A stretch of DNA of 64,000 bases, taken from positions 1,312,001 through 1,376,000 of the forward strand of contig CP000068.1 of assembly GCA_000002445.1 (NCBI GenBank). The letters run 5' to 3'. Below, in pieces: positions 14,344 through 56,195 of this stretch. The notes beneath the pieces were generated by a model that was not told the DNA's origin, did no database searches, and was given only the letters and a program-made list of their open reading frames with translations. The translations under genes and the position numbers were made by a program. This DNA is from Trypanosoma brucei (lineage: Eukaryota). Each line of letters begins with the position of its first letter. The stretch's first letter is position 1.

Positions 14344-14928
14344 CTAAGAATTTTGAAGGTACTGTGATATCCATCTGAAGGCATCACCATAACCAACTTT
14401 CTTGACAACACTGCACATAAACACTTCAAGGGGTCTCACAGCAGGGTCAGTCACCTTGTTTTGCTTACCGGTGGAAAGTCCTGTTAACCCCATGGCTGTA
14501 ATAAGGTGATCCTCTGATACAGCACGTGGTAAATCGATTTTGTTTCCAAGAATAATAAACGGCGTCTTGGCAAGCTCTTCTGTTTGCAAAAGCATGTCAA
14601 GTTCTTGCTTCGCCTCTTGGAAGCGCTCAGGGTTGGCAGCATCCACAATGAAAACGACACCGTCCACTTTAGTGAAGTAATCCTTCCATAGGCGACGCGC
14701 TTCCAGATGGCCACCCATATCAATAGTCTTGAGCTTAATTCCACCGAGGGTAAGTTCCTCGACGTTTGGGTGGAAGGTGGGCCTGTGAACATGCACCTGG
14801 TCAGTAGCAAGCTTTCCAAGTAGTGTCGTCTTCCCGGCATTATCAAGCCCAAGAAACAAAATTTTGCCTGTCTTATTTGTGAAGCCAAGGAAGGACAGCA
14901 TGTCCCAAAACCACGAAAACAGCCCCAT
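14344..14928 (-). CDS. SAR1: Small COPII GTPase SAR1
   Basis: The internal Met gives MGLFSWFWDMLSFLGF, with cat at 14926-14928. It has the P-loop GLDNAGKTTLL, switch II DMGGH and NKID. The amphipathic N-terminal helix is typical of SAR1. The protein is about 194 aa. The upstream 48 codons of the six-frame ORF are unlikely to be coding. Confidence 0.9.
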   Translation of the reverse strand: MGLFSWFWDMLSFLGFTNKTGKILFLGLDNAGKTTLLGKLATDQVHVHRPTFHPNVEELTLGGIKLKTIDMGGHLEARRLWKDYFTKVDGVVFIVDAANPERFQEAKQELDMLLQTEELAKTPFIILGNKIDLPRAVSEDHLITAMGLTGLSTGKQNKVTDPAVRPLEVFMCSVVKKVGYGDAFRWISQYLQNS

Positions 14929-15156
14929 AGCCCCTACAACTCTGATAATAAGATGTGCAGTCGAAAGAAACACTAAAGGATACAACGAGATAGGGGAGAG
15001 AAAGTCTGTGTGGAAAGAATGCAGGAAGAGGCAACAGTGAGTAACAAGAGAGCCGGTAGGATCTGCAACCACTAAAGGGGTACACGCTGCCTATAAGGCG
15101 AGGCAAGCACTGTAGCAGAAAAAAGATTAAAATGCAGACGAATTTATATATAAAGA

Positions 15157-18879: not shown

Positions 18880-19644
18880 TCATTGTGGTTTTTTTTCTAT
18901 AGCACAACCTTTTCCCCTCGAATTCATGTAAAAATTTAAAAACAAAACCAGAAGTGAGGCATTGTACAATAATTGCAGCAGGTTCCACCCTAAAGTAAAC
19001 TGAGTGTCAAGTAACGTGACCAAAATAGCATGAAGAATACAAAGAGAAAACTGCAACATTTGAATCTTGGTTAGCAGAAATTTAAACGGATTCCTATACC
19101 CCAAAGATGTCCAGAGGTAGTGTGAATACATCAAAAAATGAACGGAAGAATTTATCCAAGTCCCAAAAAACGCCGTCCCGTTTGCAAGTCCGTTTCTCAA
19201 CAAAATTCCCCAAATAAGACCAATCGTACAGTGATGATATACGTGCAAGAACGACAGTTGATCCTCTTTTTTCTTGCAAAGTATGAAAACGGTATCCAGC
19301 ATATCAATGTACTTGCTGCAGTAGTGAACGAACATCCAAAACTCTATATCCGGGCAAAATTTACCACTCAGGTTAAAGACGCCATTTTTCAAAGGCGGTG
19401 ACAGGTTAATCGCCATTGCGGCCGATAGGCATATCTGGAGCACGTTGTAAACGACCAACACCCTACTCATGTTTAAGGCGCGCCTGCCCCGCATAATACT
19501 TCTCATGACAAACACGACAAACAAATAAAGTAAATGTCCCAATACTAACGCGTGCCATGAAACCAAAGGATTAAGATATGGGAAAAAACAGAGAGAACCC
19601 ACTCCCTGACATGCCGAAGCATCTCTGCAGTCCATCATGATCAC
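18880..19644 (-). CDS. ELO: Fatty acid elongase (ELO family)
   Basis: The 254-aa ORF carries all four ELO signature boxes: KYIDMLDT (KxxExxDT), LHVYHH (HxxHH), HFLMYSHY (HxxMYxYY) and TKIQMLQF (TxxQxxQ). It also has multiple TM helices. It is the last gene of the minus-strand array. Confidence 0.85.
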   Translation of the reverse strand: MIMMDCRDASACQGVGSLCFFPYLNPLVSWHALVLGHLLYLFVVFVMRSIMRGRRALNMSRVLVVYNVLQICLSAAMAINLSPPLKNGVFNLSGKFCPDIEFWMFVHYCSKYIDMLDTVFILCKKKEDQLSFLHVYHHCTIGLIWGILLRNGLANGTAFFGTWINSSVHFLMYSHYLWTSLGYRNPFKFLLTKIQMLQFSLCILHAILVTLLDTQFTLGWNLLQLLYNASLLVLFLNFYMNSRGKGCAIEKKPQ

Positions 19645-20680
19645 TCTTGCTTTTAATTACTATATGGAAAGATGAAGAAACACAATCAAGAAGTTTTATT
19701 CGAACGTTGCCACACGAAAAAAAAACAGGGTAATACATAAAGTAACTTGAACGATACAGCTACAGGCAATCATTAAGAAACTGAGGGAAGTCATTGTCAC
19801 AGCAATACTGTGGGACTTCCGTTCACTCGGAGCTCCAACCTAATGACGGAGACTCCAAGCTGAATCCGACTTCGATAAAATCATTACGACGGCTGCCCCT
19901 GCTACACAAAACAACTGCAAAATAAACTTTCACCATGCGTTGGATAGACACACCTGCATCCATCGATGTCCCCGACGGAAAGAGTCTAAATATCAGCATC
20001 ATGTATATTACCGCGAAAAAAGAAAAATGAGATCACCCCGGCCACATGAACAGAAGTAACCACAGATAACATATGCATCCCTCCGCCTCCTTGAAAACAG
20101 ACAAATCGTGAAACATACAGAAATTACACCAGGAAGCAGATGAACAGAACCACCAATAACGGTCCAGCTATTGTCAGAGTTGCACCACTTTGGTATGTAG
20201 GCATCATGGACCCTAACCCACTGAACGAATGCTACAATGAGTTTGTTATCACCTGCCGTCGACGACCCACTGAGGTTGCAGAATGTTTTAAGTGTCCACC
20301 TAAAGAAATGTTGAAGATTCAAACAAACACAGTGCTCTGATTCATATATTTGAACACGAAAAAAGATAGCGATATAATTAGAACGCCAACAATAGTCCAC
20401 TGTTACCACAATGAATTAGAAGACAACATAGTTTACACACGAGACAAATGCTTACAAACAAGCATATTTAATTAAAGGGCGTTGAGAAATGGGGAGCAGC
20501 AACAAACAATCACATACGAGCAAGCAACGACACTGTTTTGCTGTTTTTGTTTGGAAAAAATACCAACGTGAAGGTATTTCAAAAATGACAACGAAATGGG
20601 CACCAAACCACACGTATCCGCTACCGAAAGTCAAAAATAAGGTAAGGCGCACAATTTACAAGAAAATAAAATAAATAATT

Positions 20681-20720
20681 CACACACACATATATATATA
20701 TATATGTGTGTGTGTATATT
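20681..20720. repeat. (CA)n(TA)n(TG)n compound microsatellite in the strand-switch region
   Basis: cacacacacatatatatatatatatgtgtgtgtgtatat. Confidence 0.9.
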
Positions 20721-23700
20721 GAACTGTGACTCAATTAAAGGGAAATATATACTTTGAAAGACGAAAACACCGACTACTTGTAGCCATTAGCAATAACATA
20801 AATAACAGCGCCCATGACGCTACGCCCTACATCCAAAAGAGCAAGCAAAAAAAACAGTCACAAAAGACTAGTCACATCCAAGAAAGCCGAGTGGTTGTAA
20901 GAAACAACCGAAAATACACAAGCAGGCCTTTGAAGCTCCTCTTTTCAAAAAAAAAAAGGATTAAAGACGACAAGAATCACCAGGGCACACACAAATTGTT
21001 GTGGGGACGCAACCCGCAACCATCCCCCACCGCCACCTTGTGGTAGGAGTTCGCGCCAAAGCCCATCTCACAATATTTGGGAAGTCCAGCAGCTCTCAGG
21101 CGGTCGCTCCTCGACGCAAGACCCACTAACTCCGGTGGAGGCACCGCAGGAAGCCAGAGCGACCACACACACAAACACACAACCCACCACCTTTGGGACG
21201 CATGCCTCACAAGCCGAGGCGGGAGCTACACTAGCATCTCTAGCCTTTGACGCGCCAAACTTCTCCGTCGCACACCCGAGAGCATGTCACCTACACACGA
21301 TAAATAGCGAGGGACCCGCCAAGCAAACCCGCAAGGCCACCACCCAATGAAGAGTTTCAGCGGGCACACGCAGAAGGTCAAAATACCAAGCATGTTGGGA
21401 GGACCCCCGGCCGCGACGGCGTATGCCAACCCCCGCCACTGCGTCCAGACCAATACGCCTCGCGGAATAACGGAACCCAAGCAACTGGGACAAGAGCATA
21501 TATGATGGGGTGCGACTCGCTAGTGCGGGGTCGATTGCGTGGAATGAAAGGACTTCAAGGCGGGACCGAACCTAGACACCACTTCCCCAGATGCCGAACC
21601 TCGAGGATGCACAAGCAATCGTAAACAGGACGGCGACCACTGCTGAAGAACACTTGACTCCAACACTTGGTTATGGACGGATGGAATAACAACAAGTGTA
21701 TGCCCAATACTCCCAATCTTTCGGACAGTGCAGAACGGTGATGAATCACCCAATGGAAATAGAAAAAAAATGGAGAGAAGACTCCGCAAGTCAGCGAAGG
21801 CTATAAGCAGCATGGACGATAGTATAATCCCGACCCCCGGCCACTCCACGAGAACCATTCCTGGGGGAAAAAGCGACGCCGGTCGACGCGAGGCATCAAG
21901 TTCTCAGAATTTAGGATGAGGATAAAGAGGCATTGGGGAAGAAGGAGAAGCAATATCATCGTCATATCGGGGAAAAAACACAATATACGGAACCACCTCA
22001 ACAATCCAAAAGAGACTCATCCGAACATCTAGTGACGGAAGAAGGTTGCTGGGAATAATCGGCCTTAATGCTTGTCATGGGTTTATTGTCAATTCTGTGC
22101 TGCTCGCAAACGGCAAGATGCTGATAGAAGGAGCAGGGGTAGCGACCAACGGCAAATATGCGCCACCAACGACAGACAAAACTCTCAGATGCCCCGGTAA
22201 AGAACGTGCCAGAGGTTGAGAGGACGCGAAACTCAAACCGTTTCACACGCCGGAGCCGATTGTTGCCACAGGAAGATCGAAATTTCCTCCTTCTGCTGAA
22301 GAAAATGGCGTTTGTGGTGTACCAACTAAAGAACATGGAGGTAAACGGGCTAAACCACATGTAAAAACTACTCAACGGGAATCGAAAATACTGGGGAGCG
22401 TTGGGAAAGTGGAAGTGTGAAGCTGTTGAACTGGCGTTAAGGGAAAGCAAGGGGACTGCTGTCATGGCATCGTCAAAAACTAACAGCGCCCACCTGCGCC
22501 AATTACAAAGCAATGCAGTAGTTGGTCCAAAGGAGATTTGTGGATTCTGTTGACCGTTGGTTGCGTATACAAAAGGAAAAGGTTTCTGCGCCAACGTTCG
22601 GCAGCAGAATCCATAACTCAGTTGATTGGAGACGCAACTTCGTACGAACCGAATGTACTCAGCACGGTCAAGCTAACTCTACACTCGTGAGTTTGGACCC
22701 ATGGAGAGTGGTGACGCAATTCGAGTGCCTGAGAAGTTATCTCCTAACCTCCAAATTATGTGGTGGGTAAGAAACTTTCCACCAAACAAGATAGCGAGAG
22801 TCAGTACAAACCAACGAGTTTTGGGGAAATCTCACATGACCGTGCCGTGTGGCAAAAAGAACGGTGTCGGGCTCCATTTTATTCAAAATTATGACGAAGG
22901 GGCTGAGGGATCAACCGGACGGAATACTGGACATACAACGTTGTTTCTTTGTGGACTATATGATACTCGTACGCAGGAACCTGAACGGGTGAAACCTGGA
23001 GGTGCGCTACAACAACCGGTAGGCTACACCACCTCGTGGTTTCAAAGCCGTTTAAAGAGAGATCTGTGCAGAAAACTAAATACATTCCGCCTCTACTGGT
23101 GTTACGAAACCTACTAGGTACTATAGTGGTCAGTGAAAAAGATAGACAAGGCGGAGGCGCCGCATCTGCTGTGTCTCACCCTGCAATCTATCGGAAGAAC
23201 ACCAAAACGAACACAAAGGGTATCTGAGGAGTTAGGTGGGGGTGATGAAACCGTGCGCGGTATCCTCACCCTAGTGGAGCCAAGCGAAAAATTATTAGGG
23301 ACACTCAATTTGGGATTGATGCCAGCACTGCGAAAGCGCTTGAGAAAGACATGGTCAGTCTCCACGACCTCCAAATGATGAAAACACTGAAGGGAGGTCG
23401 CAGGGACGAGTGATGTCAAATGCGTCATGAAGGATGGTGAGGTTCTCCAACTTACGTAGGTTCTTTACCAAACATTACTGTAACGAGGATGAGAGAACCC
23501 TCAAATGTTCGTACAAATGTTTGGGGTGAAGAAACGAGGAAAAAGAGAATACACAAAGACGAATCCATACCGGAAACGGGAGAAAATGAGTATAGAACAT
23601 ATGTTGATAGATCCGCGCACCTCATTCATTGTTTCTTTTTTTGATAAACATGCTTGGGGAAACGGTTCTCGGGCCTAGAATGTGGAAAATTGCACCCCGC

Positions 23701-24449
23701 TGATGAGCACTGCCATGCTCACCGAACCCACATTATTTCTAACATTTGATGCCTTATTTTTTTTTTTTTGGCTTGACAGATCTCGAAACATCTCTATAAT
23801 TTATCTTCTTATTGAAAGCATCCAACATTAGCCCCCTAAACAGACTGAGGGGTCCTTGCCCCATAGAAACAAGTCCTGAATTTTAAAGGGTGAGTTCCTT
23901 GGATACTGTCCCCCATCAGTTTTGGGAATGCCTCACTTGCCTTTACCCGAATGCACCGCGTAAAAATTAGTGGACGTTGTGCATGATGATGACCGTTCTC
24001 TTTTTACACGCGATTGGGTTTTCAATGTACCCAATCACTATGTATGAAGCGTGCCACAACCATGTTTTGGTATCCGCGAATTTTTAACGCACAGCACTCT
24101 TCCGCTGCCAAGTAAGTCTCCTAAAATAGGCAGAAGACTACCATATCCTGGTGAAGCTTCTTCTCTAAGGCGATCCGCTTCGGCTCGGAGAGACCCCCAG
24201 TGTTCCATTGAGCTCCATGAATGACAGGACGAGGATTCCGTTCTACACCTCCCCTAAGTAGTAGTAGAAGCCTATGTATCCCAATCGAAGCGCGCTCGCA
24301 CGTGCGGAGGAGCAGTCTAATATATTTCTTCCCCCCTAAGTGCCGATACTGCTGCTTGCTCCTTCTCTGATCGCCGTCAGCTTCTTGCCCACCAAAATTA
24401 TCTCTGACAGGGTAGAATGCGGGCTATTGGCTTCCTTCTGGACGGAGCA

Positions 24450-24950
24450 CTAGACGCTGGCACCATGATGAGATGGGCGGTGTAGGCAGGGACGTTACTG
24501 TATCAGTTTCCGCGGCTACCCTTCACCCGTGTGCTTTGCGCGGGCGGTCGCTACACCGGCCCTTTTTATGTTATGCATTGACGGCCGGCCTCGGTAGCGC
24601 TCGTTCACTTGCTGCAGTGGAGCCCCGATGTGTTCCGCCGGCGCTGCCTCCAGCTGTGCTGTTACGGTGAAGTGGAGGGGCGCGTGGTTGGGTCGGCTTG
24701 GAGTTTTCGGGGGGTGCGCGCAGCACTTTCTTGTTCTCCGGCTGTGAGTGACTGGTTGGAGTCGGGGTTTTGCGGTGTAGGTATTTGCATAGTTCATCGG
24801 AGGCCCCGCGTGGCTATGGTGACGCGAACCTCTGGGCCCCCTGTCGGTTAGAGCGGTACCGTCTGGGAGGAGCCGCCCGCATTGTCTCGGTGGGGGCAAG
24901 GGCCCCTTCTTAACCACGTCTAAGGAGACGCAGTGGTTACTCGGCCGTCG
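24450..24950. other. GC-rich, G-skewed island inside the strand-switch region
   Basis: The local GC content is clearly above that of the surrounding AT/GT-rich sequence (GGGCGGTGTAGGCAGGGACG...GCGCGGGCGGTCGCTACACCGGCCC). ORFs overlap it on both strands (24473-24670 +, 24516-24917 -), which looks like a by-product of the GC richness. It could be a promoter element or an unannotated structured RNA. Confidence 0.4.
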
Positions 24951-27900
24951 CAGGTCGTGTGCCGCTATTGCATTGCTTGTTACTTTGTCCTTTCATGCGG
25001 TGAGAGGTGGATAATGCTACGCCTTACGGTGGGGTGTCGCTGCTTCGGAAGTCTATTCTGTTGATTGTTGTCGACGACTCAGCGAGTGGGCGTTTATTGT
25101 CGAAACATAAAGTGACTCTGCTGTCAGTGCTTCTGCTCGTGTATTTGCCGTTTCAGGTATGGTAACAGATGGAACTGACTGTCATATTCCCGCGTCAGGG
25201 GAACAAGCTGTAACTTCGCGTTCGGGCGCTGTATTCCATGTTTTAGTTGTCGTAACATGTTTGTATATGCTTGTATGTGTTACGTGTTCATCATTCAGGT
25301 TTCGCCTCGAACCATCGGTTGCTGTCTAGGGGTCGCATCTCCGCTTTACTCGACAACTCTCTATTGTTCGGTAGCAAAGAGTGGACTGGGATGGTCTTCG
25401 TGATCGGGCTGTTAATTGCTTAGGCACGCCTCGAAGTTACAGCAGACGAGATAGTGAGATGAGGTGTGTGTGCTGTGTCTTACTGATGTGTGCAAGGGAT
25501 TTGTGCTAAACAAAAAAATATATGTACTAATTCAGGTAATATTACCTACTCGAGCATTGCGATTTGGGTGAGATTGCTGCGGATGAATTTGTTGTCGCAC
25601 TTTACTTGGAGGAGTTTCCGGAAACTGTCTGTTCCAAAGTTGTTTTCTCTGCAGTAAAAGGTGGAGGATCCTTGTACCTACAGGTCCGATGCGGCTGTTC
25701 AGAACGTTTGTAGCCCAATGGGCTTCGTCCAGCAACACAGTGTAGAAACGAATAGCATGTTGTCCCTCCATCTGGTCAACACGAAAGCCATACCCCGCGT
25801 TTCTGCCTCGGTGCTGAGATAGTGCGGTCATGCGTTACGCAATATGAGATATGCCCGTTTTTAAAATTATGAATGTCCTCGATAAGATAATCACTCGATT
25901 GTATCGCTCGTGTGGCCGCTGGCGATGGATGCCAAGATTCCCTACTGGACCTTCAAATAGTAATATAAGAAGCTCACTGGACCGTATTGGGGGCAACGAA
26001 GATATCTTGTATCAGGGAGGATATGGGTTTGTTAACACGCGCGATTTCACAATCCTTCTACCAAACCGAAGCGTCGTGAAGCTGATTTCCCCAAACAACA
26101 GTGGATGATGTTCAACTTAAAGCTCTCTCTGTCTCATTACCGCTATCTGTGTTCAATGAGCGGTGTCATCTGTGCTGTGGCTATGTTACCTGTGTAATCA
26201 TACCACCTGATGGTACGGAGTTCGTACGCACATCCTCATGCTGGATGTACCTGTTGGTATTGGAACGTTTTTGTGACAAATGCAGGGGGGGGCTTGCTAA
26301 ACCTCTATATGATCTCCCTCTCCATGTTACGGGATATTTTTAGATTAATGGTACATGAAAAGTGAGGTAAGAGCCTTTGGAGTTCACAACAAATCGTTTC
26401 TTTCAAAGTTCCAATACTACTTAATTGCATTCCGTAAAAATAAAAATTCGTTTTTCGTATAAACTATTAGGTTTTAGTGTGTGGGTGTGTATGGGGAGAG
26501 CGAAGCATTTTGTGTAGCGACTTTAAGAAAAACTTCAGGTAAATGGGCATACAGTATGTTGGAAAGAGAATATCGGCCTTCGAAAAGGCTCTTCAATAGT
26601 GTTAGTTCTTTCACTCACCTTTTCCTTTGTTGGTAGAACTGGTGATTCCAAGTTGAATAGTTGTAGACGGATGTTTGAAGTGTATTTACATATTCCCTTT
26701 GGAGTTTCTGTGGGTGTGTGAGGTTTCTGGCATTCTGAAACCACACATTAGGTGGTTAATTACGTTAAAGCAGCATCCGGCCGATGCGATTGTCCACCAC
26801 AGAAATTCTAAGGCGTAATGTGGTGGTGGAGTGTTGGCTGCTAGACGGCGTTTCGGCCTTTGTTTGATGTTTGCAACCTCGTTGGTGTGGGAAAGGGCGT
26901 GTGAGTGACACATATCCCTTGAATTATATATTTTTTGCCGTCCGCATTATCTCCGCTACGCGTTGCATGCACACCCGTGTGGTGTTTATTTTTTTTTATG
27001 TTGTGTTATATAATAATGGTGGTTTCTGACGAGTTTGTTGTTTGTAGTGTGACCCTTAATTTTTCTTAGATCACGATTTTTTGACAACATTCCGAAGAAC
27101 AATTACTCCCTTACCGCACATACTTCATTACTGATTGAATCCACTCCAAGCTATCAAAACGATACGCAAATATGTGTGTGGAATTTGTTTTGTGTGTTGT
27201 GGCTTTCTGCGGTGTCAGGTTCACAGGTTTCTAAAACTTCGTTCGTGGGAGCGTTGCGTCGTCAGAAAGTTCGCATTGATCCAAGTGAAGTGTGGGGTTT
27301 TGTTGATGATATGTAGGTTGTATTTTTGGCTCTAACAAATACTACCTTTCATTTTTGTTAGGTATTTGTTCGGCCAATTAAACGACGATGCTATTGCAGT
27401 CTGTACCTCACACCCACTTCTTTACCCCTAGTTGCATTTAAGAGCCCAGTGCTTGTAGACCAGACAACAGGTCCCATTTTGACGAGAAACAAGTCGTTAG
27501 TGATTTTTTTTTGTGTGGGACTACCCGTGAATTTTGGAAGAGAGGATAGTTAATGCCTCACTGTTAGAGTTGGTTCTGTTGCATTCTGGAGCAGCCCTGT
27601 TTTGTCAATTCTTCCATTTCCTTCCTGCAGTTATCGTTTTTGTCTGTTCAATTATCCGACGCAGCTGTTCGTTCACGGTCCTTCAATATATAAATATATA
27701 TATATGAAGTAACATACTTTTGAGGATGTACTTTGCTGCTTCGAATCATCTGCATGTTAGGCATGCTTTTTCACATGTTCTCTATTTCGTTCGTGGAGGA
27801 ACGAAGCTACCTTTTCCTCTTTAGCAGCACAGTTCAAAGCCAAGTGAGAAAATACGCATTAAAATACAAAACCCATTAGAAAGCAGCTGAAAACGAAAAG

Positions 27901-29100
27901 TACACCTTTGTGCCTCTGCTGATGGTCACATTATTCTTCACATTTACTGATAGTTCAATTTTATTATTGTGGTGTGATTGCAGGTGAAGCACCCCTTCAA
28001 GCCATTTTATGAGTGATTACACGGAAAAAAACATTATTAACACCAAATTGAGGGAAAAACCTGTGTGTGCCGTACCCTTCAGTGGCTGTACCATCCACTC
28101 TTGATTTGGTAGTGTAGTGGGTATAAAAAGAGTATTTATGACTAATTTCCACTCAACGTATTTCTTGGGTGGTTAAATTTATTTATTTTTCTTTGGACTG
28201 TATTTGTGGCTTCACGTCAATCTTTATTTTTAGCAGAGGACGCAACGAGAACTTGGTCTGGTTCGGAAGAAGATGTTTTTCTCCTACTTGTGGCTGTGCT
28301 TTTTGAGATATTGAAGTTTTTTCTTTTCAAAGATTGAGATGAGGAAATTTATTGCAAACAATGTTTAACATTCTGAAAGGTTATTTTGTTCATCTTTCCG
28401 GAAAGGGGAAGAGTGATTTTGGCCCTTAATCGACCGTGCTTGTGCTCCCAATGGGCGGATGATAGCAAAAATAAGAGACTTATGTTAAGAAATCATGAGA
28501 GGTGGTTCGAAGAAGAAGTTGAAAGTGACTAACTCATTTAAACGATGGAGCTGCTACACATCCTCTCATATCATGTTTTGTAGATGTCAGAGGGTGCATG
28601 TTACTTGATAGAACGTGAATACACTGAAACCTTTAAGCTTCTGTTTGAGGCATCGGAGAACGGCGTGGTTATAGGATCCTCTGTAATTCGCGGGGTACCA
28701 GTAACAAAAACGTTCGGTTCCATTGCCTCAAGCTTGTTACATACAATACTCGAATACCATTTCAAGGAAGTAAATGCCTCACTTGTCAAAATATACTTCG
28801 TGTTGAACCTTTTCCCTTTCCCCTTGGTGGATGCTTGTTCTTCAAAAGGGATATCGCGGGACGTATGCTTGGTTTTATGTTAGTTTGTGCGGTGTACGGA
28901 AATATCTAATATGGAATATGTCGCCCTCTTTGGCATTGTTCCCATTGTTATTTTGTTTACGCGGTTGCGCATTTTGTCTGATTCCTTGTCAACCTTAGTA
29001 CTGTATTTTCCTTTAGTTCCTGCAGCAACATTTGTGTGTGTGTGTGTGTGTGGCATTGATTCATTATGGTACACTGTGTGTTGGTTGAGCATTCTTCGTT

Positions 29101-29150
29101 TTAGTTGGTGTCTGCGTTTTGTTTGGGATTGTTTACTTTGTTCTTTGTAG
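29101..29150 (+). promoter_or_regulatory. polypyrimidine tract with AG; candidate trans-splice acceptor region for the first GRESAG4 copy
   Basis: ttgtttgggattgtttactttgttctttgtAG lies about 50 bp upstream of the ORF. The same element is present upstream of copy 2 at about 35636-35685. This is the usual kinetoplastid SL-addition signal architecture. Confidence 0.45.
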
Positions 29151-29201
29151 GACGTTTAGTTTACCTGTTTCACTAGCAGTACCGGCCAAAGTTTCCAAAT
29201 T

Positions 29202-32200
29202 ATGATTTCCATTCATCAGTCGATTCTCTTCGGTCGCGATGTTTCACGGGTCCGCATGGAGAATAGTCCCGTGCCGTGTATCAACCAGTTTCGCTGCCGC
29301 CTTACCATGTCATCGTTGTCGCTACTTTTGGTGTTTCTTGTGGTGGTTATGCCGCCGGTGGAAGCTTTGGATAATATAACGGTAAAGGTTTACTCACTTC
29401 TGTATCACCCTTTTGTTGGGAGGAGACTAATCGATTCTATGAATGCCGGTTTCAACGCGTCAATGGCAGCCCGTCAATGGACCGTTGCCCCAGGCATCAA
29501 TGTTGAAGTTATCCACCCTGCATCGTATAGAATTCCGGGTCCGAGGTTCTTGCAGAGGGCAATAAATGATAACAAGGATGAATTCTTTGTTGTGGTGGGA
29601 CCGATGGGTGACGGTCAGTTGGCTGCCTCTCGTTCATTCTTGCAGAAGGAAAATTTGGTTGCATTTGCTCCATCCACTGGGGCAAGCTCTGTGCGCGGTT
29701 GGAGTCCCAACATCTACTTCCTGCGTGTGTCACCCACTGTCGAGCTTATTGCATTGATGCGTTTTGCTGTAACTCACCTGCGTTTACTACGGATCGGCTT
29801 CATGTACCTGCAGGGTCTCACCTTTGGGGATAGTGAATATGAGGTGGCCATAAAACTAATGTCTCATTTGGGACGCGAGTTATGTGGTGTTTTCACAGTG
29901 GCAAGCTCGCATGGCAAAGGTGCAGCTGACTCCGATTTTGATGCCGTGTGGGACAAGTTCGTGGTGACCCGTCCACAGGGTGTGATCATGTTTGCTCCAC
30001 CAGCAAAAGATGTGGTAAGATTTGTAGTAAAGATGCTGAATGACAGTCGTACCCAAGACGCCTACTTTCTTGCTTCTTCGGTACTCGAATTGACAATTGC
30101 CTCTTGGAGCGGCAATATTGAGGCAGCCAATACAGCACTTGATCTCGGGCAGATTGTGCTCTCGCGCACGAATCCGCTGGCGACGGACACACAATACCAA
30201 GCAATCAGGCGTTTTCAGGACGATGCGAGATCATACCTGAGTGCTAATCCGGGCGTAACTCTCTTCAGCGGCGCAGACGACTTCGAGCATCATTATGTGG
30301 ATGGGAAGCTTATGGTGTATGGGTGGATCGTTGGTGAGGTGCTGTCACAGGCCCTGAGGAGTCGTGCCTGGATTAAGGACAGGGAGACCTTCAAGAAGTC
30401 TCTGTATAGTCAACGTCGGTACGTCGTCGATGAGCTTGTGTTTGGTGACTTTGGTGGTGAGTGTGAGGGTACAGCAGGTAAGCGCGGTGCTGTGTGTAAC
30501 TGTAATCAGGGAGGAAACGTAGTGTACATCAACGTTGCTAGGAGGGATAATGTCTTGGAGGTGATACATGATGGACAGGTAGTTGTCGATTCATCACTCT
30601 GTTACCACGACGAGGTTCGGTTGCATTCCCCTGTGAATGGTTTATTGGTATTCATGCAGGATGATCCGGTTGCGCAAAATGCGGCTGAGGAAATATATGA
30701 TGGCGCCATTCCTCTCACTGGTGATGGCCGTCTGGGGCGAACTGATCGTTTTTTCTTACATATGCTGACATCAGAAACGGCTGAAGCATCCTCAGAGTTA
30801 GAGTCAGAATTGGGCACCAGGGCAGTGACGGCTGTGTTTGGAGTTGCCGATGATGCTATGCTATCCCTACAAACTACTGCTTTCATTGACCCCATCTCTC
30901 TCCTCCCGGGGTTACCTCATAGAGGGAGGAAAGTTATTTACCTATCTCCGACACTGGAGCAGCAGCTATTCGCGCTGGTAAAATATTTTGTCGGGTCAGG
31001 TTCTACGGTAGTGCACGCTGTCGTCTGCCGTGGTGATGTGGTTTCGATTGAAAGATTGCTTTATCTGATGTTGATGACTTTTGGCGGGCACATGGGAACA
31101 GTGGTAGGGCCTGATAGCAGTACAGATCTGGAAGGTTCGATGCCAGAAACCGGTGATGTGCTTGTCATAGGCCTGTCCAAGGACGACGTTGCCGTGGTAG
31201 CGTCTCACCTGGATCGTAACCCGGATGTTCGTGTCGCTGTCCTGTTCTTTGACGTAGCCCTACTATACATTGAGTTTGTCAAAGCTTTCAAGAGCAGTTC
31301 AAGCGGTGGTCGGCTTCTTTTTGCAACGAGTCTGCCTCACTGGGCAGAGGCTAACTCGACTTCGGCTACTGTACAGAAGTTTCACGCGGCAGTGCCTGAT
31401 TCGCCACGGTGGACACCTTTGTCACTGCTTGGTTTCGCGACCGGAAGATTCATTCAAACGCTGCTCTTTCATATGGACAAAGTGACACCGGATTCTATAA
31501 TCAATGCAATATATACTCTCTCGGTCGTAAACAGCGACGACATGCGGTATGGTCCGTTCGTGGAGGAGCGATGCCCTTCAACCAAAGATGCGCCGGAGGG
31601 CGGCGACCACTTCTGTGGTAAGAATTATGGTGCGAGGCGACTTTCTGTGTGGTCGATGGACCGTGCGCTGAACGCTTCGGTGGCACCGCTGACATCGGGC
31701 GCAACGCCGTCTTTGGTGTACATAGACCCGTATTCGAAGGTGTTGTCAGGCGGCCGACTTGCCGGTGTCATCGTTGGAGTTCTTTTCATTTTACTGTTGC
31801 TTGTTGCTCTTTTGCTAGTGCTTCTTTGTCTGCGCCGCAGCGCACGCGACAATGACAGCGCGCCCAAGGAGCCAGCGGACCCTGTGACGCTAATTTTTAC
31901 AGATGTAGAAAGCAGTACTGCACAATGGGCAGCACATCCCGAGCTGATGCCCGATGCTGTGGCCGCGCATCACCGTTTGATTCGCTCGCTAATCACCCAC
32001 TACAGGTGTTATGAAGTGAAGACGGTTGGGGACTCATTCATGATCGCGTGCAAGAGTGCATTTGCCGCATCGAGTCTTGCCCAAGGCCTGCAGCAACGGT
32101 TTTTGTCTGCAGACTGGGGAACCAGTGCCTTCGACGAGTCCTATCGTGAGTTTGAGCAGCAGCGTGCAGATGACGACAATGAATACAAACCGCCGTCCGC

Positions 32201-32933
32201 GCGCCTCGACCCCGAAGTGTACCGGTCTCTCTGGAAAGGTCTACGCGTACGTATCGGGATACACACCGGACTGTGCGAAATCCGACAAGATGAAGTGACG
32301 AAGGGCTACGACTACTACGGGAAGGTGACAGACATGGCCGCGCGGACGGAGAGCGTTGCGAACGGTGGCCAGGTAGTACTGACGCAAGCAACGTACTTTG
32401 CACTGAGCACAGCAGAGCGTGAACAGTTCGATGTGGTCTCCCTTGGCCGCATACCACTTGCTGGTGCGCCCCAACCTATGGAAGTATACCAGTTGAACGC
32501 GGTGCCCGGCCGTACCTTCGCTGCTCTTCGCCTTGACCGCGAGTTTGGCGACGACTTTGAAGATAGAATGAGTACCTCCACTGGAGACTCGAGTTCTCTC
32601 CGTAGCGGGATGAATGGAACAACGCAGATGATTGCAAGTTGCCTGCAGGCTGTGCTAGGCACTTTCACTGCAGCACAGCGACAGAAACTGCTGGTGCCTT
32701 TGTGCGAACGGTGGCGTGTCACGCTTCCCAGGACCGCACAGCTAACATGGGACGAGGGCTTTTGTGAAGATGTGATTCGTCGGATTTCAGTCAAGGTCGG
32801 TCGTGTCGTTGACCTCTGTGCAAACAGCGGTGGTGAGCGTACCGTCAGTACGCTGAGAAGTGCGTCTGTGATTATAATGTCGAACCGGCTTCGGGAATTT
32901 GAGGCAGAGGCAACCCAGAGCCCTGAAGCTTAG
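29202..32933 (+). CDS. GRESAG4: Receptor-type adenylate cyclase (GRESAG4 family), copy 1
   Basis: The 1243-aa ORF has a probable signal peptide (MSSLSLLLVFLVVVMPPVEA; the true start is likely at about 29307). It has a large extracellular domain and a single TM (LAGVIVGVLFILLLLVALLLVLLCL). The C-terminal class III cyclase catalytic domain carries LIFTDVESST, KTVGDSFMIA, GLRVRIGIHTG and YYGKVTDMAARTESVANGGQVV. Confidence 0.9.
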   Translation: MISIHQSILFGRDVSRVRMENSPVPCINQFRCRLTMSSLSLLLVFLVVVMPPVEALDNITVKVYSLLYHPFVGRRLIDSMNAGFNASMAARQWTVAPGINVEVIHPASYRIPGPRFLQRAINDNKDEFFVVVGPMGDGQLAASRSFLQKENLVAFAPSTGASSVRGWSPNIYFLRVSPTVELIALMRFAVTHLRLLRIGFMYLQGLTFGDSEYEVAIKLMSHLGRELCGVFTVASSHGKGAADSDFDAVWDKFVVTRPQGVIMFAPPAKDVVRFVVKMLNDSRTQDAYFLASSVLELTIASWSGNIEAANTALDLGQIVLSRTNPLATDTQYQAIRRFQDDARSYLSANPGVTLFSGADDFEHHYVDGKLMVYGWIVGEVLSQALRSRAWIKDRETFKKSLYSQRRYVVDELVFGDFGGECEGTAGKRGAVCNCNQGGNVVYINVARRDNVLEVIHDGQVVVDSSLCYHDEVRLHSPVNGLLVFMQDDPVAQNAAEEIYDGAIPLTGDGRLGRTDRFFLHMLTSETAEASSELESELGTRAVTAVFGVADDAMLSLQTTAFIDPISLLPGLPHRGRKVIYLSPTLEQQLFALVKYFVGSGSTVVHAVVCRGDVVSIERLLYLMLMTFGGHMGTVVGPDSSTDLEGSMPETGDVLVIGLSKDDVAVVASHLDRNPDVRVAVLFFDVALLYIEFVKAFKSSSSGGRLLFATSLPHWAEANSTSATVQKFHAAVPDSPRWTPLSLLGFATGRFIQTLLFHMDKVTPDSIINAIYTLSVVNSDDMRYGPFVEERCPSTKDAPEGGDHFCGKNYGARRLSVWSMDRALNASVAPLTSGATPSLVYIDPYSKVLSGGRLAGVIVGVLFILLLLVALLLVLLCLRRSARDNDSAPKEPADPVTLIFTDVESSTAQWAAHPELMPDAVAAHHRLIRSLITHYRCYEVKTVGDSFMIACKSAFAASSLAQGLQQRFLSADWGTSAFDESYREFEQQRADDDNEYKPPSARLDPEVYRSLWKGLRVRIGIHTGLCEIRQDEVTKGYDYYGKVTDMAARTESVANGGQVVLTQATYFALSTAEREQFDVVSLGRIPLAGAPQPMEVYQLNAVPGRTFAALRLDREFGDDFEDRMSTSTGDSSSLRSGMNGTTQMIASCLQAVLGTFTAAQRQKLLVPLCERWRVTLPRTAQLTWDEGFCEDVIRRISVKVGRVVDLCANSGGERTVSTLRSASVIIMSNRLREFEAEATQSPEA

Positions 32934-35736
32934 CGAAATAATGCACACTGCAGTTTTCTTTGTCTCACTTGGTTTTCCACTTTTCGTGTATATACACATA
33001 GCTTATTACATTCGCAATGCGCAATAGTTGACTAGTTGTTTCATCTACAATTTGTATACTCATACCTTAAATGGGGGCAGGGACATGTACCCGCCTCTTC
33101 TTGATTTCTTATTAACTGATTCACTTCTTTTCTGTCTATTTTATTTTCGACGTGGCAATGAGCAAATGTGTCTAGTCCCGTTCCTTCTTCCTTTCTTTTT
33201 TTCGTGAAGAATGCTGAAGCGGCAAGCAACCTCGTCAGGGTATTTGCTGGTTTTCGGTTCTGTTCTTCCGTAATCGTTTTCCCTCTCTATCCGTTGTGGC
33301 ATGTTTACTGGGAAGATGTTCAACTCCTTTCTCTAACGTTCCCCCGTCGCCACCGCTTCTCATCTACCTTTGATTTTTTTATTTTTTGGAGCAGGTGTTG
33401 CTAATAGTATGCGTGTTCGAGATCTGTCATTATTATTGTTATTATCATCACTGCTTTGTTGATTCCTGTTTGTAATCCCACTGCATTGTGACGCAATATC
33501 TCCAACTGAACCTTTGCAAGTGTCCATGCAACACCGTCGTGTTTGCTTCTGCATCCGACTGTTTTACCTCACCTGTTACTCCTTTCTTTCTTTTGGGGTT
33601 GTCAGTTATTAGTGGGGCGATGCCGCTCGTGGCCGTTGTAGCGTTGTTTTTTTTTCCTATGCCGCATGTACCTCCATAACGTCCCTAGTGGTTCAAAGGT
33701 ACGGTAAACTGATCCTGTCCATCAGAGGAGAGGGGAGAGCGAGGTGTGGTTGCTGCTTGAACCGCTGCACATAAATTACCAGTGAGGCGCATAAATATCG
33801 GGGTGATGACACTCCGTGTTGCGTGTGCATATGTCACTTTTGTTGGCTTCTGCTTGCGTGAACTCACAAGGAACCGCTGCTGTTTTCATCCCGGTTGTGG
33901 CGTCTGGTGTGTTACCTCCTCCTTTTTTTTATTTTTGCAGGGGGGTGGGTGCCACTACACGGCAGCTCTCGTCCATTGGTCTGTAGTTGTGCGATTTTAT
34001 TTGATATTCGCTGCGGTTGTGGTGCTGTCAGCACTGCTATTGGCAGGTAACAAAACGTTAGGTGCGCATTCTTCCTCTATGAGATCAAAAAGTTGTTTAC
34101 TACAGTATTTTGAATTTTGGGGGAGTGGGGAGAGGTACGTAAGGCAAATAAAAGAAAAGTGAGTTATTGGTAATTTAAGTCTCGCTGGTCCAATGTGTTG
34201 GGGTTCTCAGTTTATCTCTTTCTGTGGTATCTAGGTGTTAATAACAACAGAAGAGGGTTATCAAGAAAACAGGCTGACGTCACCACTATGAACACTCCCT
34301 TCACTTTAATGCAGGCACTGCATGGAAAGGTTAAAAGTATGGAGGGAATTTGTTTATTAATCCCACTGTACTGTGTTGGTGGATGAATTGTGAAAAACAT
34401 TATGCGTGTTCTTACCTTTTTTTGCTGACTCTCACAATTCCGTGCGGTGCAGTGGAGTTCATTACGATTGATGAGACAGCTTAATGCTAAATGATCTTAT
34501 CATAAAATGTTATAATTTCATTTTTTTTTCGTTTCTCAAATTATAATTTTCATTTTCCATGGAAATATCGTCTTTTTTTGTTTAAAAAAAATGAAGCAAA
34601 TGTTATAACATCCTGCTTTATTATTATTGTTGTTGTTGTTTTTGAACCACTGAATCAACGTGTGCCGGATGCTTTGTCATGTGTTTCACATTTTTTTTGG
34701 GGGGGTGGTTAAATTTATTTTTTTTCTTTGGACTGTATTTGTGGCTTCACGTTAATCTTTATTTTTAGCAGAGGACGCAACGAGAACTTGGTCTGGTTCG
34801 GAAGAAGATGTTTTTCTCCTACTTGTGGCTGTGCTTTTTGAGATATTGAAGTTTTTTCTTTTCAAAGATTGAGATGAGGAAATTTATTGCAAACAATGTT
34901 TAACATTCTGAAAGGTTATTTTGTTCATCTTTCCGGAAAGGGGAAGAGTGATTTTGGCCCTTAATCGACCGTGCTTGTGCTCCCAATGGGCGGATGATAG
35001 CAAAAATAAGAGACTTATGTTAAGAAATCATGAGAGGTGGTTCGAAGAAGAAGTTGAAAGTGACTAACTCATTTAAACGATGGAGCTGCTACACATCCTC
35101 TCATATCATGTTTTGTAGATGTCAGAGGGTGCATGTTACTTGATAGAACGTGAATACACTGAAACCTTTAAGCTTCTGTTTGAGGCATCGGAGAACGGCG
35201 TGGTTATAGGATCCTCTGTAATTCGCGGGGTACCAGTAACAAAAACGTTCGGTTCCATTGCCTCAAGCTTGTTACATACAATACTCGAATACCATTTCAA
35301 GGAAGTAAATGCCTCACTTGTCAAAATATACTTCGTGTTGAGCCTTTTCCCTTTCCCCTTGGTGGATGCTTGTTCTTCAAAAGGGATATCGCGGGACGTA
35401 TGCTTGGTTTTATGTTAGTTTGTGCGGTGTACGGAAATATCTAATATGGAATATGTCGCCCTCTTTGGCATTGTTCCCATTGTTATTTTGTTTACACGGT
35501 TGCGCATTTTGTCTGATTCCTTGTCAACCTTAGTACTGTATTTTCCTTTAGTTCCTGCAGCAACATTTGTGTGTGTGTGTGTGTGTGGCATTGATTCATT
35601 ATGGTACACTGTGTGTTGGTTGAGCATTCTTCGTTTTAGTTGGTGTCTGCGTTTTGTTTGGGATTGTTTACTTTGTTCTTTGTAGGACGTTTAGTTTACC
35701 TGTTTCACTAGCAGTACCGGCCAAAGTTTCCAAATT

Positions 35737-38700
35737 ATGATTTCCATTCATCAGTCGATTCTCTTCGGTCGCGATGTTTCACGGGTCCGCATGGAGAATA
35801 GTCCCGTGCCGTGTATCAACCAGTTTCGCTGCCGCCTTACCATGTCATCGTTGTCGCTACTTTTGGTGTTTCTTGTGGTGGTTATGCCGCCGGTGGAAGC
35901 TTTGGATAATATAACGGTAAAGGTTTACTCACTTCTGTATCACCCTTTTGTTGGGAGGAGACTAATCGATTCTATGAATGCCGGTTTCAACGCGTCAATG
36001 GCAGCCCGTCAATGGACCGTTGCCCCAGGCATCAATGTTGAAGTTATCCACCCTGCATCGTATAGAATTCCGGGTCCGAGGTTCTTGCAGAGGGCAATAA
36101 ATGATAACAAGGATGAATTCTTTGTTGTGGTGGGACCGATGGGTGACGGTCAGTTGGCTGCCTCTCGTTCATTCTTGCAGAAGGAAAATTTGGTTGCATT
36201 TGCTCCATCCACTGGGGCAAGCTCTGTGCGCGGTTGGAGTCCCAACATCTACTTCCTGCGTGTGTCACCCACTGTCGAGCTTATTGCATTGATGCGTTTT
36301 GCTGTAACTCACCTGCGTTTACTACGGATCGGCTTCATGTACCTGCAGGGTCTCACCTTTGGGGATAGTGAATATGAGGTGGCCATAAAACTAATGTCTC
36401 ATTTGGGACGCGAGTTATGTGGTGTTTTCACAGTGGCAAGCTCGCATGGCAAAGGTGCAGCTGACTCCGATTTTGATGCCGTGTGGGACAAGTTCGTGGT
36501 GACCCGTCCACAGGGTGTGATCATGTTTGCTCCACCAGCAAAAGATGTGGTAAGATTTGTAGTAAAGATGCTGAATGACAGTCGTACCCAAGACGCCTAC
36601 TTTCTTGCTTCTTCGGTACTCGAATTGACGATTGCCTCTTGGAGCAGCGATATTGAGGCAGTCAATACAGCACTTGATCTCGGGCAGATTGTGCTCTCGC
36701 GCACGAATCCGCTGGCGACGGACACACAATACCAAGCAATCAGGCGTTTTCAGGACGATGCGAGATCATACCTGAGTGCTAATCCGGGCGTAACTATCTT
36801 CAGCGGCGCAGACGACTTCGAGCATCATTATGTGGATGGGAAGCTTATGGTGTATGGGTGGATCGTTGGTGAGGTGCTGTCACAGGCCCTGAGGAGTCGT
36901 GCCTGGATTAAGGACAGGGAGACCTTCAAGAAGTCTCTGTATAGTCAACGTCGGTACGCCGTCGATGAGCTTGTGTTTGGTGACTTTGGTGGTGAGTGTG
37001 AGGGTACAGCAGGTGAGCGCGGTGCTGTGTGTAACTGTAATCAGGGAGGAAACGTAGTGTACATCAACGTTGCTGGGAGGGATAATGTCTTGGAGGTGAT
37101 ACATGATGGACAGGTAGTTGTCGATTCATCACTCTGTTACCACGACGAGGTTCGGTTGCATTCCCCTGTGAATGGTTTATTGGTATTCATGCAGGATGAT
37201 CCGGTTGCGCAAAATGCGGCTGAGGAAATATATGATGGCGCCATTCCTCTCACTGGTGATGGCCGTCTGGGGCAAACTGATCGTTTTTTCTTACATATGC
37301 TGACATCAGAAACGGCTGAAGCATCCTCAGAGTTAGAGTCAGAATTGGGCACCAGGGCAGTGACGGCTGTGTTTGGAGTTGCCGATGATGCTATGCTATC
37401 CCTACAAACTACTGCTTTCATTGACCCCATCTCTCTCCTCCCGGGGTTACCTCATAGAGGGAGGAAAGTTATTTACCTATCTCCGACACTGGAGCAGCAG
37501 CTATTCGCGCTGGTAAAATATTTTGTCGGGTCAGGTTCTACGGTAGTGCACGCTGTCGTCTGCCGTGGTGATGTGGTTTCGATTGAAAGATTGCTTTATC
37601 TGATGTTGATGACTTTTGGCGGGCACATGGGAACAGTGGTAGGGCCTGATAGCAGTACAGATCTGGAAGGTTCGATGCCAGAAACCGGTGATGTGCTTGT
37701 CATAGGCCTGTCCAAGGACGACGTTGCCGTGGTAGCGTCTCACCTGGATCGTAACCCGGATGTTCGTGTCGCTGTCCTGTTCTTTGACGTAGCCCTACTA
37801 TACATTGAGTTTGTCAAAGCTTTCAAGAGCAGTTCAAGCGGTGGTCGGCTTCTTTTTGCAACGAGTCTGCCTCACTGGGCAGAGGCTAACTCGACTTCGG
37901 CTACTGTACAGAAGTTTCACGCGGCAGTGCCTGATTCGCCACGGTGGACACCTTTGTCACTGCTTGGTTTCGCGACCGGAAGATTCATTCAAACGCTGCT
38001 CTTTCATATGGACAAAGTGACACCGGATTCTATAATCAATGCAATATATACTCTCTCGGTCGTAAACAGCGACGACATGCGGTATGGTCCGTTCGTGGAG
38101 GAGCGATGCCCTTCAACCAAAGATGCGCCGGAGGGCGGCGACCACTTCTGTGGTAAGAATTATGGTGCGAGGCGACTTTCTGTGTGGTCGATGGACCGTG
38201 CGCTGAACGCTTCGGTGGCACCGCTGACATCGGGCGCAACGCCGTCTTTGGTGTACATAGACCCGTATTCGAAGGTGTTGTCAGGCGGCCGACTTGCCGG
38301 TGTCATCGTTGGAGTTCTTTTCATTTTACTGTTGCTTGTTGCTCTTTTGCTAGTGCTTCTTTGTCTGCGCCGCAGCGCACGCGACAATGACAGCGCGCCC
38401 AAGGAGCCAGCGGACCCTGTGACGCTAATTTTTACAGATGTAGAAAGCAGTACTGCACAATGGGCAGCACATCCCGAGCTGATGCCCGATGCTGTGGCCG
38501 CGCATCACCGTTTGATTCGCTCGCTGATCACCCACTACAGGTGTTATGAAGTGAAGACGGTTGGGGACTCATTCATGATCGCGTGCAAGAGTGCATTTGC
38601 CGCATCGAGTCTTGCCCAAGGCCTGCAGCAACGGTTTTTGTCTGCAGACTGGGGAACCAGTGCCTTCGACGAGTCCTATCGTGAGTTTGAGCAGCAGCGT

Positions 38701-47028: not shown

Positions 47029-48153
47029 GTCACGTACGTTGTAGCTGTATGTGTAACATCACATTCCTTGTGTTTGTGTGGTGTGTTTGCATGCATAGAA
47101 TATAATCGGACTAGAAAACACTTTATTTGAGCGTACCCCTGTCCTTGAGTGACACTCTCAGGGGGATGACGCTGCTTAACATTGTGGAGAGGGAGAGACA
47201 CAACAGAGAGTAGAGTAATATGTTTGTGTGCAAGAGATAATAGAAAGGAGGAGGGGTGGTGTGACTCTGTGTCTTGCTTATGTTATTACCTTCCCTCACT
47301 GTTCCCCCCCACACACACATACACACGTACCGGAATCCGTAATATACACGGTATTTGTAGGGGCTGTCCTTTTATTTTCTCTTCCATTGTTTGCTTTGCA
47401 TGTCCCTCACAGTTGTGGTAGAATGAGTGCTCGCACCTGGTGTGTGAGTGTGGGAAGGTTTCATGCACGAGTGTGTATCACTAAAAATGCGGTCAGTAGA
47501 TAACAAAGTGTGTGTTAATCACCTTGTGTGAGTATTTAAATCATATTTGACTCCACCGGGTCTGTGCTTGCTTCTTTCTCTTTGTTTTGATTAACTGGGA
47601 CGCGTTTGACCTTTTTGCAGTGTGCGTTTATATCTGCTGTGCCCGGCATATGGCACACCTTTCTTTCACTACGCTATGTGTTCTGAAGCCCCATTACTCT
47701 CTTTCCGCGAGTACCCCAATTGCATATACTCCTCTTCACTGCTTCCCTCTTTTTTTGTTTAATTTATCTTTTCTTAATTACGTAACTTCTGGTAGTGTCA
47801 GTAATATTCAGACAGTTGAGAGAGAGAGGGGGGGGGGTGGTGAGTTTACCAACCAAGTAAGCCAGCGGTCAGCCCCTTCTGAGGCCCGTGTGGAGTTGCC
47901 TGATGTTTCCATGCACGCATAAGAGGCAGGTAATTTTCCTCGTGACCTTTTTTTTTATGCTGTCTATCTGTCAACTTGTTTCTAATGCTGCTGGAAATAA
48001 TATTTCCTATTTAAAATAGGTGAAGGTTTACGTGCCCGCATAGGTGCACCTGTATGTGTTTTATGAGGTTATATTGTAGTTATGTCAAATATTGTGATCG
48101 TAACTTATATTATTTTCGTCCATTCTAAATGGTTGTGATGGATTTTTCTTTTC

Positions 48154-48495
48154 GTGCTTCTTCATTTGTTAATTAAAAGTGAAAAGATGACGGACACGTT
48201 TGAAGGTATTTTAAAAGAAATCCACAGTCTTGAGGAGATGAACGACATGTACTCCTACCAAATTGCCTCTCTGATGGTGGAGGTTAAGGAGAATGGAGGG
48301 GACACTAAAAAGGAAGAGGAAGTGCTTGAATTAAAGCGTCGGCTGAGCGAGAACCTGAAATGTGTCAGTGAACTTGATGTCCTCTTTTATAAATACCCCT
48401 GGAAGAAATATGCGCACCTTCGGAGGAAGTCCCATTCGGCATCGTCTGGGGGGGGGGCAGTCATAAATTTTCCTGACCAGGGGAAAACCCCCTAA
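48154..48495 (+). CDS. possible small coiled-coil protein; weak
   Basis: The ORF lies in the unit-1-specific segment. The likely start is MTDTFEGILKEIHSLEE. It has a short charged helical stretch and no recognised family. It could be a spurious ORF. Confidence 0.2.
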   Translation: MLLHLLIKSEKMTDTFEGILKEIHSLEEMNDMYSYQIASLMVEVKENGGDTKKEEEVLELKRRLSENLKCVSELDVLFYKYPWKKYAHLRRKSHSASSGGGAVINFPDQGKTP

Positions 48496-56156: not shown

Positions 56157-56159
56157 CAT

Positions 56160-56195
<36 letters not shown>

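Follow-up and report, generated by a model that had tools for sequence, protein, structure and literature searches.

In this work we describe the approximately 9.5 kb gap (positions 19,645-29,201) between two oppositely oriented gene clusters in a 64,000-nucleotide stretch of Trypanosoma brucei DNA, referred to here as the window, whose coordinates are those of T. brucei TREU927 chromosome 5 minus 1,312,000. The gap (about 1,331,645-1,341,201 on chromosome 5) is the divergent strand-switch region between ELO4 (Tb927.5.4530) and the first of the GRESAG4 adenylate cyclases (Tb927.5.4540), and it is very likely that RNA polymerase II (Pol II) starts two polycistronic units here, one running leftward and the other rightward, each of which would initiate around its own GC-rich island. 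We read the region in this way because the open reading frames (ORFs) of the two clusters point apart, because A/T skew and the orientation of polypyrimidine tracts reverse between them, and because two islands that are outliers in GC content are GT-rich on their sense strands, towards which published start-region 10-mers are also biased. Published transcript data lend further weight to this reading by labelling both units as divergent and listing no processed RNA across 20,336-25,640, as does the recurrence of a GC-rich segment upstream of ELO in other trypanosomes.

The assignment of the locus is supported by two independent 3'-end anchors that agree on the offset and by an AG dinucleotide directly before all three published splice acceptors of the gap. 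The published poly(A) site of Tb927.5.4530 (1,330,766), together with its 114-nt 3' untranslated region (3'UTR), gives 1,330,880 and places the stop codon of the elongase at 18,880 with an offset of 1,312,000; similarly, the poly(A) site of Tb927.5.4560 (1,356,165) minus a 3'UTR of 872 nt leads to the amidohydrolase stop codon at 43,293 and an offset of exactly 1,312,000. On the minus strand the AG immediately precedes 20,336, and on the plus strand the other two are at 25,638-25,639 and 27,797-27,798. The units running from Tb927.5.4530 to Tb927.5.4010 on the minus strand and from Tb927.5.4540 to Tb927.5.4610 on the plus strand both carry the label 'Divergent' in the list of putative Pol II units given by Kolev et al. 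(2010; PMC2936537, Table S14), and the same study found 5'-triphosphate RNA reads to be enriched at every divergent transcription unit on both strands. The region was already catalogued in 2010 as a start region and is an ordinary member of a well-studied class.

The gene layout proposed in a first-pass annotation of the window, with minus-strand genes to the left of 19,644 and plus-strand genes to the right of 29,202, is confirmed by the ORFs of at least 150 amino acids. Every one ending at or before 19,644 is a minus-strand ORF; rightward of 29,202 the plus strand carries all of the long ORFs (377-1,243 amino acids), and the minus-strand ORFs found there are 152-188 amino acids long and mostly nested in long plus-strand ORFs. 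Both these ORF strands and the two units of Table S14 describe clusters pointing apart, the arrangement by which a divergent strand-switch region is recognized in T. brucei. The same annotation had called the intervening 9.5 kb free of ORFs, which holds insofar as it contains no credible coding ORF: none in 19,645-29,201 has a coding-like codon score, and the longest stop-to-stop frame spans 224 codons, a length reached by approximately 5% of block shuffles (160 +/- 33). The interval is not empty, as three published processed transcripts lie inside it.

As the first-pass annotation had also claimed, composition flips between the clusters, with A/T skew reversing once at about 23,600 and polypyrimidine tracts changing strand at the same place. 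On the plus strand A exceeds T until approximately 23,600 and T exceeds A beyond, so that cumulative A-T has a single maximum at 23,599; binomial p values for A against T range from 1e-8 to 1e-15 in the segments outside 23,601-24,950; the right core gives 0.027 and the right island 6e-6 (Table 1). For polypyrimidine tracts of 14 nt or more the change of strand takes only 43 bp: the last on the minus strand ends at 23,586, the first on the plus strand starts at 23,629, and the tracts favor the expected strand by 12 to 2 on the left and by 10 to 2 on the right. The strings quoted in support of the flip (ccaccacc and others) were located at 21,020-21,040 and 21,163-21,192. Cumulative G-C is W-shaped, with a global minimum at 21,485, a local minimum at 24,404 and a local maximum at 23,692. 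The left core (21,551-23,600), read on the plus strand, contains 534 G against 445 C (p=0.005) and 660 A against 411 T (p=3e-14), carries eight polypyrimidine tracts on its minus strand, and is without Pfam or protein homology. Plus-strand counts in the right core (23,601-24,449) are 175 G against 220 C (p=0.027) and 203 A against 251 T (p=0.027). The reversed GC skew of the core is nominally significant on either side. The core had been described as AT-richer, which is correct relative to the islands; at about 47-48% GC it is average for the window and not AT-rich.

The twin GC islands on either side of this core are real and lie where the first-pass annotation had placed them. At 57.2% GC on the left and 61.9% on the right, they stand above all 203 non-coding background windows of both clusters: their 300-bp windows reach 0.59-0.62 GC against a background mean of 0.432 and maximum of 0.52, and the highest 300-bp value in the entire 64 kb window (0.633) falls in the right island. 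Both are 0.5-0.6 kb long, are G/T-rich on their sense strand, and are separated by the 2.9 kb core. Plus-strand counts are 151 G against 193 C and 175 A against 82 T in the left island, which includes a (TG)n-like tract at 21,163-21,182, and 178 G against 132 C and 127 T against 64 A in the right. The inner edge of the left island coincides with the global minimum of cumulative G-C (21,485) and that of the right island with the local minimum (24,404), and it is at these edges that GC skew becomes G>C on the outgoing strand; the core has the opposite direction. Judged only from GC skew, the region would contain two divergent switches flanking a convergent one. CpG observed/expected is flat over the window (0.87-1.0) and unremarkable in the islands, and since CpG is undepleted throughout, these are GC islands and not CpG islands. 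G-quadruplex potential at the islands, assessed with G4Hunter and the canonical motif, was not above that of ordinary spacers. The idea that the islands are copies of one another is ruled out by inverted-repeat and island-against-island comparisons, which yielded chance 10-mers only.

Three processed novel transcripts reported by Kolev et al. (2010, PMC2936537, Table S7) fall within 19,645-29,201. Tb5.NT.87 is the first processed RNA of the leftward cluster (1.15 RNA per cell) and Tb5.NT.88 the first of the rightward cluster (0.27 RNA per cell). The ORFs within Tb5.NT.87 have no Pfam match and a non-coding codon score, and the small ORFs within Tb5.NT.88 likewise have no Pfam match. Tb5.NT.89, which follows Tb5.NT.88, has its main poly(A) site at 1,341,014, and its 3' part lies within the cyclase tandem-repeat unit. 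The same table lists no processed transcript for 20,336-25,640, a 5.3 kb interval that contains both islands and the core.

Outward from 23.6 kb, the order of parts is alike on both sides: a pyrimidine-rich inner segment (C>G, T>A) leads to a GC island and then to a splice acceptor, beyond which one or two low-abundance non-coding transcripts precede the first protein-coding gene. The first-pass annotation had gone further in calling the region unusually long and symmetric, neither of which is borne out. Divergent regions of T. brucei are published as 5-10 kb (PMC11796357), and here the stretch without processed RNA is only 5.3 kb; in addition, the A/T switch at 23.6 kb is nearer to ELO4 (4.0 kb) than to the cyclase (5.6 kb), and the inner segments measure 2.05 kb and 0.85 kb. 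The sole symmetric spacing is that from island to first splice acceptor, which is 614 bp on the left and 690 bp on the right.

Table 1. Features of the chromosome 5 strand-switch region and of the first gene on either side (window coordinates).
Feature	Position	Strand	Remarks
ELO4 fatty-acid elongase coding sequence (Tb927.5.4530)	18880..19638	-	Pfam ELO E=9e-47; leads the annotated genes of the leftward cluster
Tb5.NT.87, trans-spliced polyadenylated transcript of 587 nt without credible ORF	19749..20336	-	Kolev 2010 Table S7: 1,332,336->1,331,749
Left GC island, G+T-rich on minus strand; candidate start zone of leftward cluster	20950..21550	-	57.2% GC
Left core, purine-rich on plus strand, pyrimidine-rich on minus strand	21551..23600		47.8% GC; no processed transcript on record
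Switch point of A/T skew and polypyrimidine-tract orientation	23586..23642		Cumulative A-T maximum 23,599; local cumulative G-C maximum 23,692
Right core, pyrimidine-rich on plus strand	23601..24449		46.5% GC
Right GC island, G+T-rich on plus strand; candidate start zone of rightward cluster	24450..24950	+	61.9% GC
Tb5.NT.88, processed transcript of 1,999 nt without credible ORF	25640..27639	+	Kolev 2010 Table S7: 1,337,640->1,339,639
Tb5.NT.89, processed transcript of 1,230 nt	27799..29029	+	Kolev 2010 Table S7: 1,339,799->1,341,029; 0.43 RNA per cell
Cyclase 5' flank inside 6.5 kb tandem repeat unit	28167..29201	+	28,167-29,600 is 99.7% identical to 34,703-36,135
Receptor-type adenylate cyclase GRESAG4 (Tb927.5.4540)	29202..32933	+	Leads the annotated genes of the rightward cluster

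In T. brucei start regions, GT-rich elements on the sense strand give direction and H2A.Z deposition (Wedel 2017), and we examined how far this signature is present here by counting the 157 strand-biased 10-mers of that study on both strands. Sense matches outnumber antisense matches by 26 to 4 on the left, where 10 of these hits come from the one (TG)n-like tract, and by 16 to 5 on the right; the minus strand of the left island has the highest density in the window (11-14 per kb). G and T are in excess on the coding strand and this excess reverses at the switch, as expected of the class, with a magnitude that lies within the intergenic background. The published GT-rich signature appears to be present, though weak. 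Enrichment of H2A.Z/H2B.V, H4K10ac and BDF3 across some 10 kb is a further feature by which the class is recognized (Siegel 2009). The resemblance to a GT-rich bidirectional Pol II promoter that had been noted from the letters alone stands as regards the divergent region, the sense-strand GT bias on both sides and the listing by Kolev et al., and was overstated as regards the strength of the GT bias.

Comparison with other trypanosomatids extends the evidence to the head of the leftward cluster. The ELO protein has its best named relatives, at 62-64% identity, in T. melophagium, T. vivax and T. congolense, which points to the T. brucei group. T. melophagium, T. conorhini and T. vivax all keep the gene order ELO, CCDC39-like, small ORF and ARF, and a short contig of T. 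cruzi marinkellei carries ELO followed by a gene of 926 amino acids. In each of the four other Trypanosoma species compared, only 120-600 bp of contig precede ELO. Three of these species (T. melophagium, T. conorhini and T. cruzi marinkellei) have a GC-rich segment 150-500 bp upstream of the ELO start, and the contig terminates inside this segment, its last 100-300 bp having 59-68% GC against a locus mean of 40-46%. Towards ELO, a purine- or C-rich composition gives way to a G/T-rich one in T. melophagium and T. conorhini, and the T. cruzi marinkellei contig begins with a C9 run. These contig ends suggest that short-read assemblies break on GC-rich or homopolymer sequence where the ELO cluster begins. 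Given its presence in these three species, the GC-rich segment at the head of the ELO4 cluster looks to be conserved in kind and not in sequence; its greater distance from the gene in T. brucei is due to Tb5.NT.87, which sits between the island and ELO4. In Leishmania tarentolae the closest ELO homologue sits inside a cluster with different neighbors.

From these findings we propose a model in which the initiation of each cluster would be centred on or near its own GC island, 0.6-1.2 kb upstream of the first splice acceptor, with GT-rich sequence on the sense strand setting direction and favoring H2A.Z deposition by analogy with other start regions. The primary transcript on the left would be trans-spliced and polyadenylated into Tb5.NT.87 and then ELO4, and that on the right into Tb5.NT.88, Tb5.NT.89 and then GRESAG4. 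The 2.9 kb core between the islands may carry only unstable upstream or antisense RNA, which would fit the bidirectional initiation described by Kolev et al. (2010). Such an arrangement is similar to the paired unidirectional core promoters of Cordon-Obras et al. (2022, Cell Rep 38:110221), who are cited in PMC11796357 for the view that each divergent region consists of two oppositely oriented core promoters; here too there are two candidate zones, one per direction, approximately 3 kb apart.

Several observations weigh against this model. Contrary to the first-pass annotation, GT skew does not rise above the intergenic background: sense-strand GT in the flanks (0.58-0.65) falls at the 67th-98th percentile of non-coding DNA within the clusters (mean 0.55-0.57, maximum 0.70), so that only the sign flips. 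On the right there are 3-4 Wedel 10-mers per kb, fewer than the 10-12 per kb of ordinary spacers in the rightward cluster, and the G10 run that is the commonest 10-mer of transcription start regions is absent, the longest G run being a G8 at 26,285-26,292. The two islands have only chance 10-mers in common and no shared motif. Across the core (21,551-24,449) GC skew and A/T skew disagree in direction, and a simple model of transcription-coupled skew therefore fails to explain it. Within the 5.3 kb gap, the islands are candidate sites of initiation. Furthermore, all start-region fragments drive similar reporter levels and no canonical motif is found among them (Wedel 2017), which favors dispersed over island-focused initiation. 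Taken to its conclusion, this last point would have initiation fully dispersed over the gap and the first kilobases of each cluster, with the islands as compositional by-products that lack a promoter role and owe their composition to, for example, nucleosome- or R-loop-associated mutation bias. That discrete start sites appear to be absent in these regions, with no CpG islands described (Briggs 2018), points the same way, as do the missing common motif and a CpG observed/expected of 0.9-1.0 in the islands. We nevertheless consider full dispersal rather doubtful. It leaves unexplained that apart from the islands no non-coding window in 64 kb exceeds 52% GC, that the inner edges of the islands match both GC-skew minima, that the islands are nearly equidistant from their respective first acceptors, and that three other species also have a GC-rich segment ahead of ELO; moreover, the later work cited in PMC11796357 is credited there with two discrete core promoters per divergent region.

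Other explanations start from what else a gap of this kind might contain. Were the region, or its purine-rich core, a decayed gene or retroelement (ingi or DIRE), the islands could be leftover coding sequence, and in line with this the longest open frame is in the upper 5% of shuffles, the ORF at 22,701-23,117 weakly favors its frame (0.0 against -0.24 bits per codon), the plus strand of the core has a purine excess like that of some coding strands, and such regions are often synteny breaks, as the different neighbors of the L. tarentolae ELO homologue would illustrate. Protein-level similarity was found in no frame: Pfam searches of all six frames of 20,701-25,200 (X-masked translations) gave nothing credible, a search of 5.8 billion proteins, a collection that apparently lacks T. 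brucei and so may miss lineage-specific elements, gave no homologue at E<=0.01 for the core ORFs or for either island translated in six frames, and tblastn of all window proteins against the region left no relic (best E=0.16). The region also lacks tandem or dispersed repeats, and a T-poor strand is in itself expected to leave long frames on either strand; we regard a decayed element as highly improbable. A different proposal, adding to the promoter role and not replacing it, is that the region is also an ORC1/CDC6 binding site or early replication origin; ORC1/CDC6 is found at cluster boundaries and 19 of 42 early origins are centred on divergent strand-switch regions, set against which approximately 80% of ORC1/CDC6 sites are not active origins (Tiengwe 2012). 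As no diagnostic sequence feature of an origin was found in the region, we think this additional role unlikely. That the region is a centromeric strand-switch domain merits almost no credence: T. brucei centromeres are AT-rich repeat arrays, a centromere of the T. cruzi type would call for a GC-rich domain of degenerate retroelements longer than 10 kb, and here there are no tandem arrays, repeat families or retroelement domains, the GC-rich parts totaling about 1.1 kb and not 16 kb. What speaks for it is the title of Obado (2005), by which a GC-rich strand-switch domain is centromeric in T. cruzi. Finally, the region holds no tRNA, and no Rfam family was found in it at gathering score, so that nothing points to a Pol III or small-RNA gene cluster (tRNA, snRNA or other known RNA genes). 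Rfam searches in E-value mode matched only a low-complexity palindrome, a (CA)n(TA)n(TG)n microsatellite at 20,678-20,717 with 20-nt arms that are 95% complementary, which accounts for spurious sub-threshold miRNA-like scores; similar tracts occur near 488-529 and 56,158-56,187.

The genes on either side of the gap are of known or recognizable families. On the left these comprise the ELO elongase (Tb927.5.4530, which has been characterised; PMC11867338), a CCDC39-like protein and ARF. The ARF-family ORF (14,344-15,072, minus strand) is 242 amino acids long when read from a GTG, compared with 184-194 in orthologues of three species, and its true start is probably an internal ATG. On the right, two tandem receptor-type adenylate cyclases are followed by an amidohydrolase and then a second tandem pair. 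Tb927.5.4540 and Tb927.5.4550 are named GRESAG4 adenylate cyclases (Kolev 2010, Table S6), and the former matches the Pfam adenylate-cyclase periplasmic-binding-like domain (E=4e-132) and Guanylate_cyc (E=8e-35).

Several further observations concern the rightward cluster. The tandem adenylate cyclase unit (28,167-41,238) has a period of 6,535 bp and 99.7% identity over the 1.4 kb compared. Inside both this repeat unit and Tb5.NT.89, two plus-strand ORFs of 99 and 87 amino acids (28,584-29,150) share a frame with one stop codon between them. The first of these (28,584-28,883) was considered as a gene and rejected, its Pfam match to Acatn, the N-terminus of an acetyl-CoA transporter, being sub-threshold (E=0.031, 13 bits against a cut-off of 23.7); its sole relative is 94% identical and is encoded on two 1 kb Logan contigs that are themselves approximately 97% identical to the window. 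This first ORF is probably non-coding, the alternative being a short lineage-specific peptide. The second tandem pair (44,566-54,095) consists of ORFs of 820 and 818 amino acids without a Pfam domain, repeated with a period of 7,073 bp. About 260 bp 3' of each copy lies a G-rich run on the antisense strand (47,285-47,318 and 54,355-54,400), one of which includes an antisense G11 at 54,362-54,384 (C11 on the plus strand), in an orientation opposite to that of the sense-strand G runs reported at start regions. The last part of the cluster (58,000-64,000) is unlike the rest in being purine-rich on the plus strand (A>T, G>C), with 22 polypyrimidine tracts on the minus strand against 4 on the plus strand; despite this change in composition, the ORFs and a published 3.7 kb transcript, Tb5.NT.95 (58,222-61,900), remain on the plus strand.

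Together, these features place the region among the T. brucei Pol II start regions (Siegel 2009; Kolev 2010; Wedel 2017), with which it shares divergent clusters, a sense-strand G/T bias, a gene-free gap in the 5-10 kb range, low-abundance processed leader transcripts and, less certainly, an enrichment of strand-biased GT 10-mers. It differs from them in having no G10 run, in a right-side density of GT 10-mers below that of ordinary spacers, and in that its clearest landmark is GC content, a feature undescribed in the start-region literature that we examined. As a discovery the region carries little weight, neither its length nor its GT skew being exceptional. There are also parallels with mammalian CpG-island promoters, an analogy previously drawn by Kolev et al. 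(2010; see also Ginno 2013): in both, GC-rich islands are present with the onset of GC skew at the island edge, and broad bidirectional initiation with unstable upstream RNA, known there, is proposed here. The trypanosome region differs in that CpG is not depleted and in that the output is polycistronic with trans-splicing; in T. brucei, furthermore, no positive link between GC skew and R-loops has been found (Briggs 2018). Whether promoters in these parasites are dispersed or focused is still debated, and in this context the remaining value of the region lies in sharply bounded islands that sit at GC-skew minima, approximately 0.6-0.7 kb from the acceptors, and are echoed near ELO elsewhere, which together offer a cheap and testable predictor. 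We put forward only tentatively, as a possibility with the odds against it, that the twin GC islands are discrete promoter modules firing in both directions; if this were true genome-wide, GC content and cumulative GC skew would predict trypanosome Pol II start sites from sequence.

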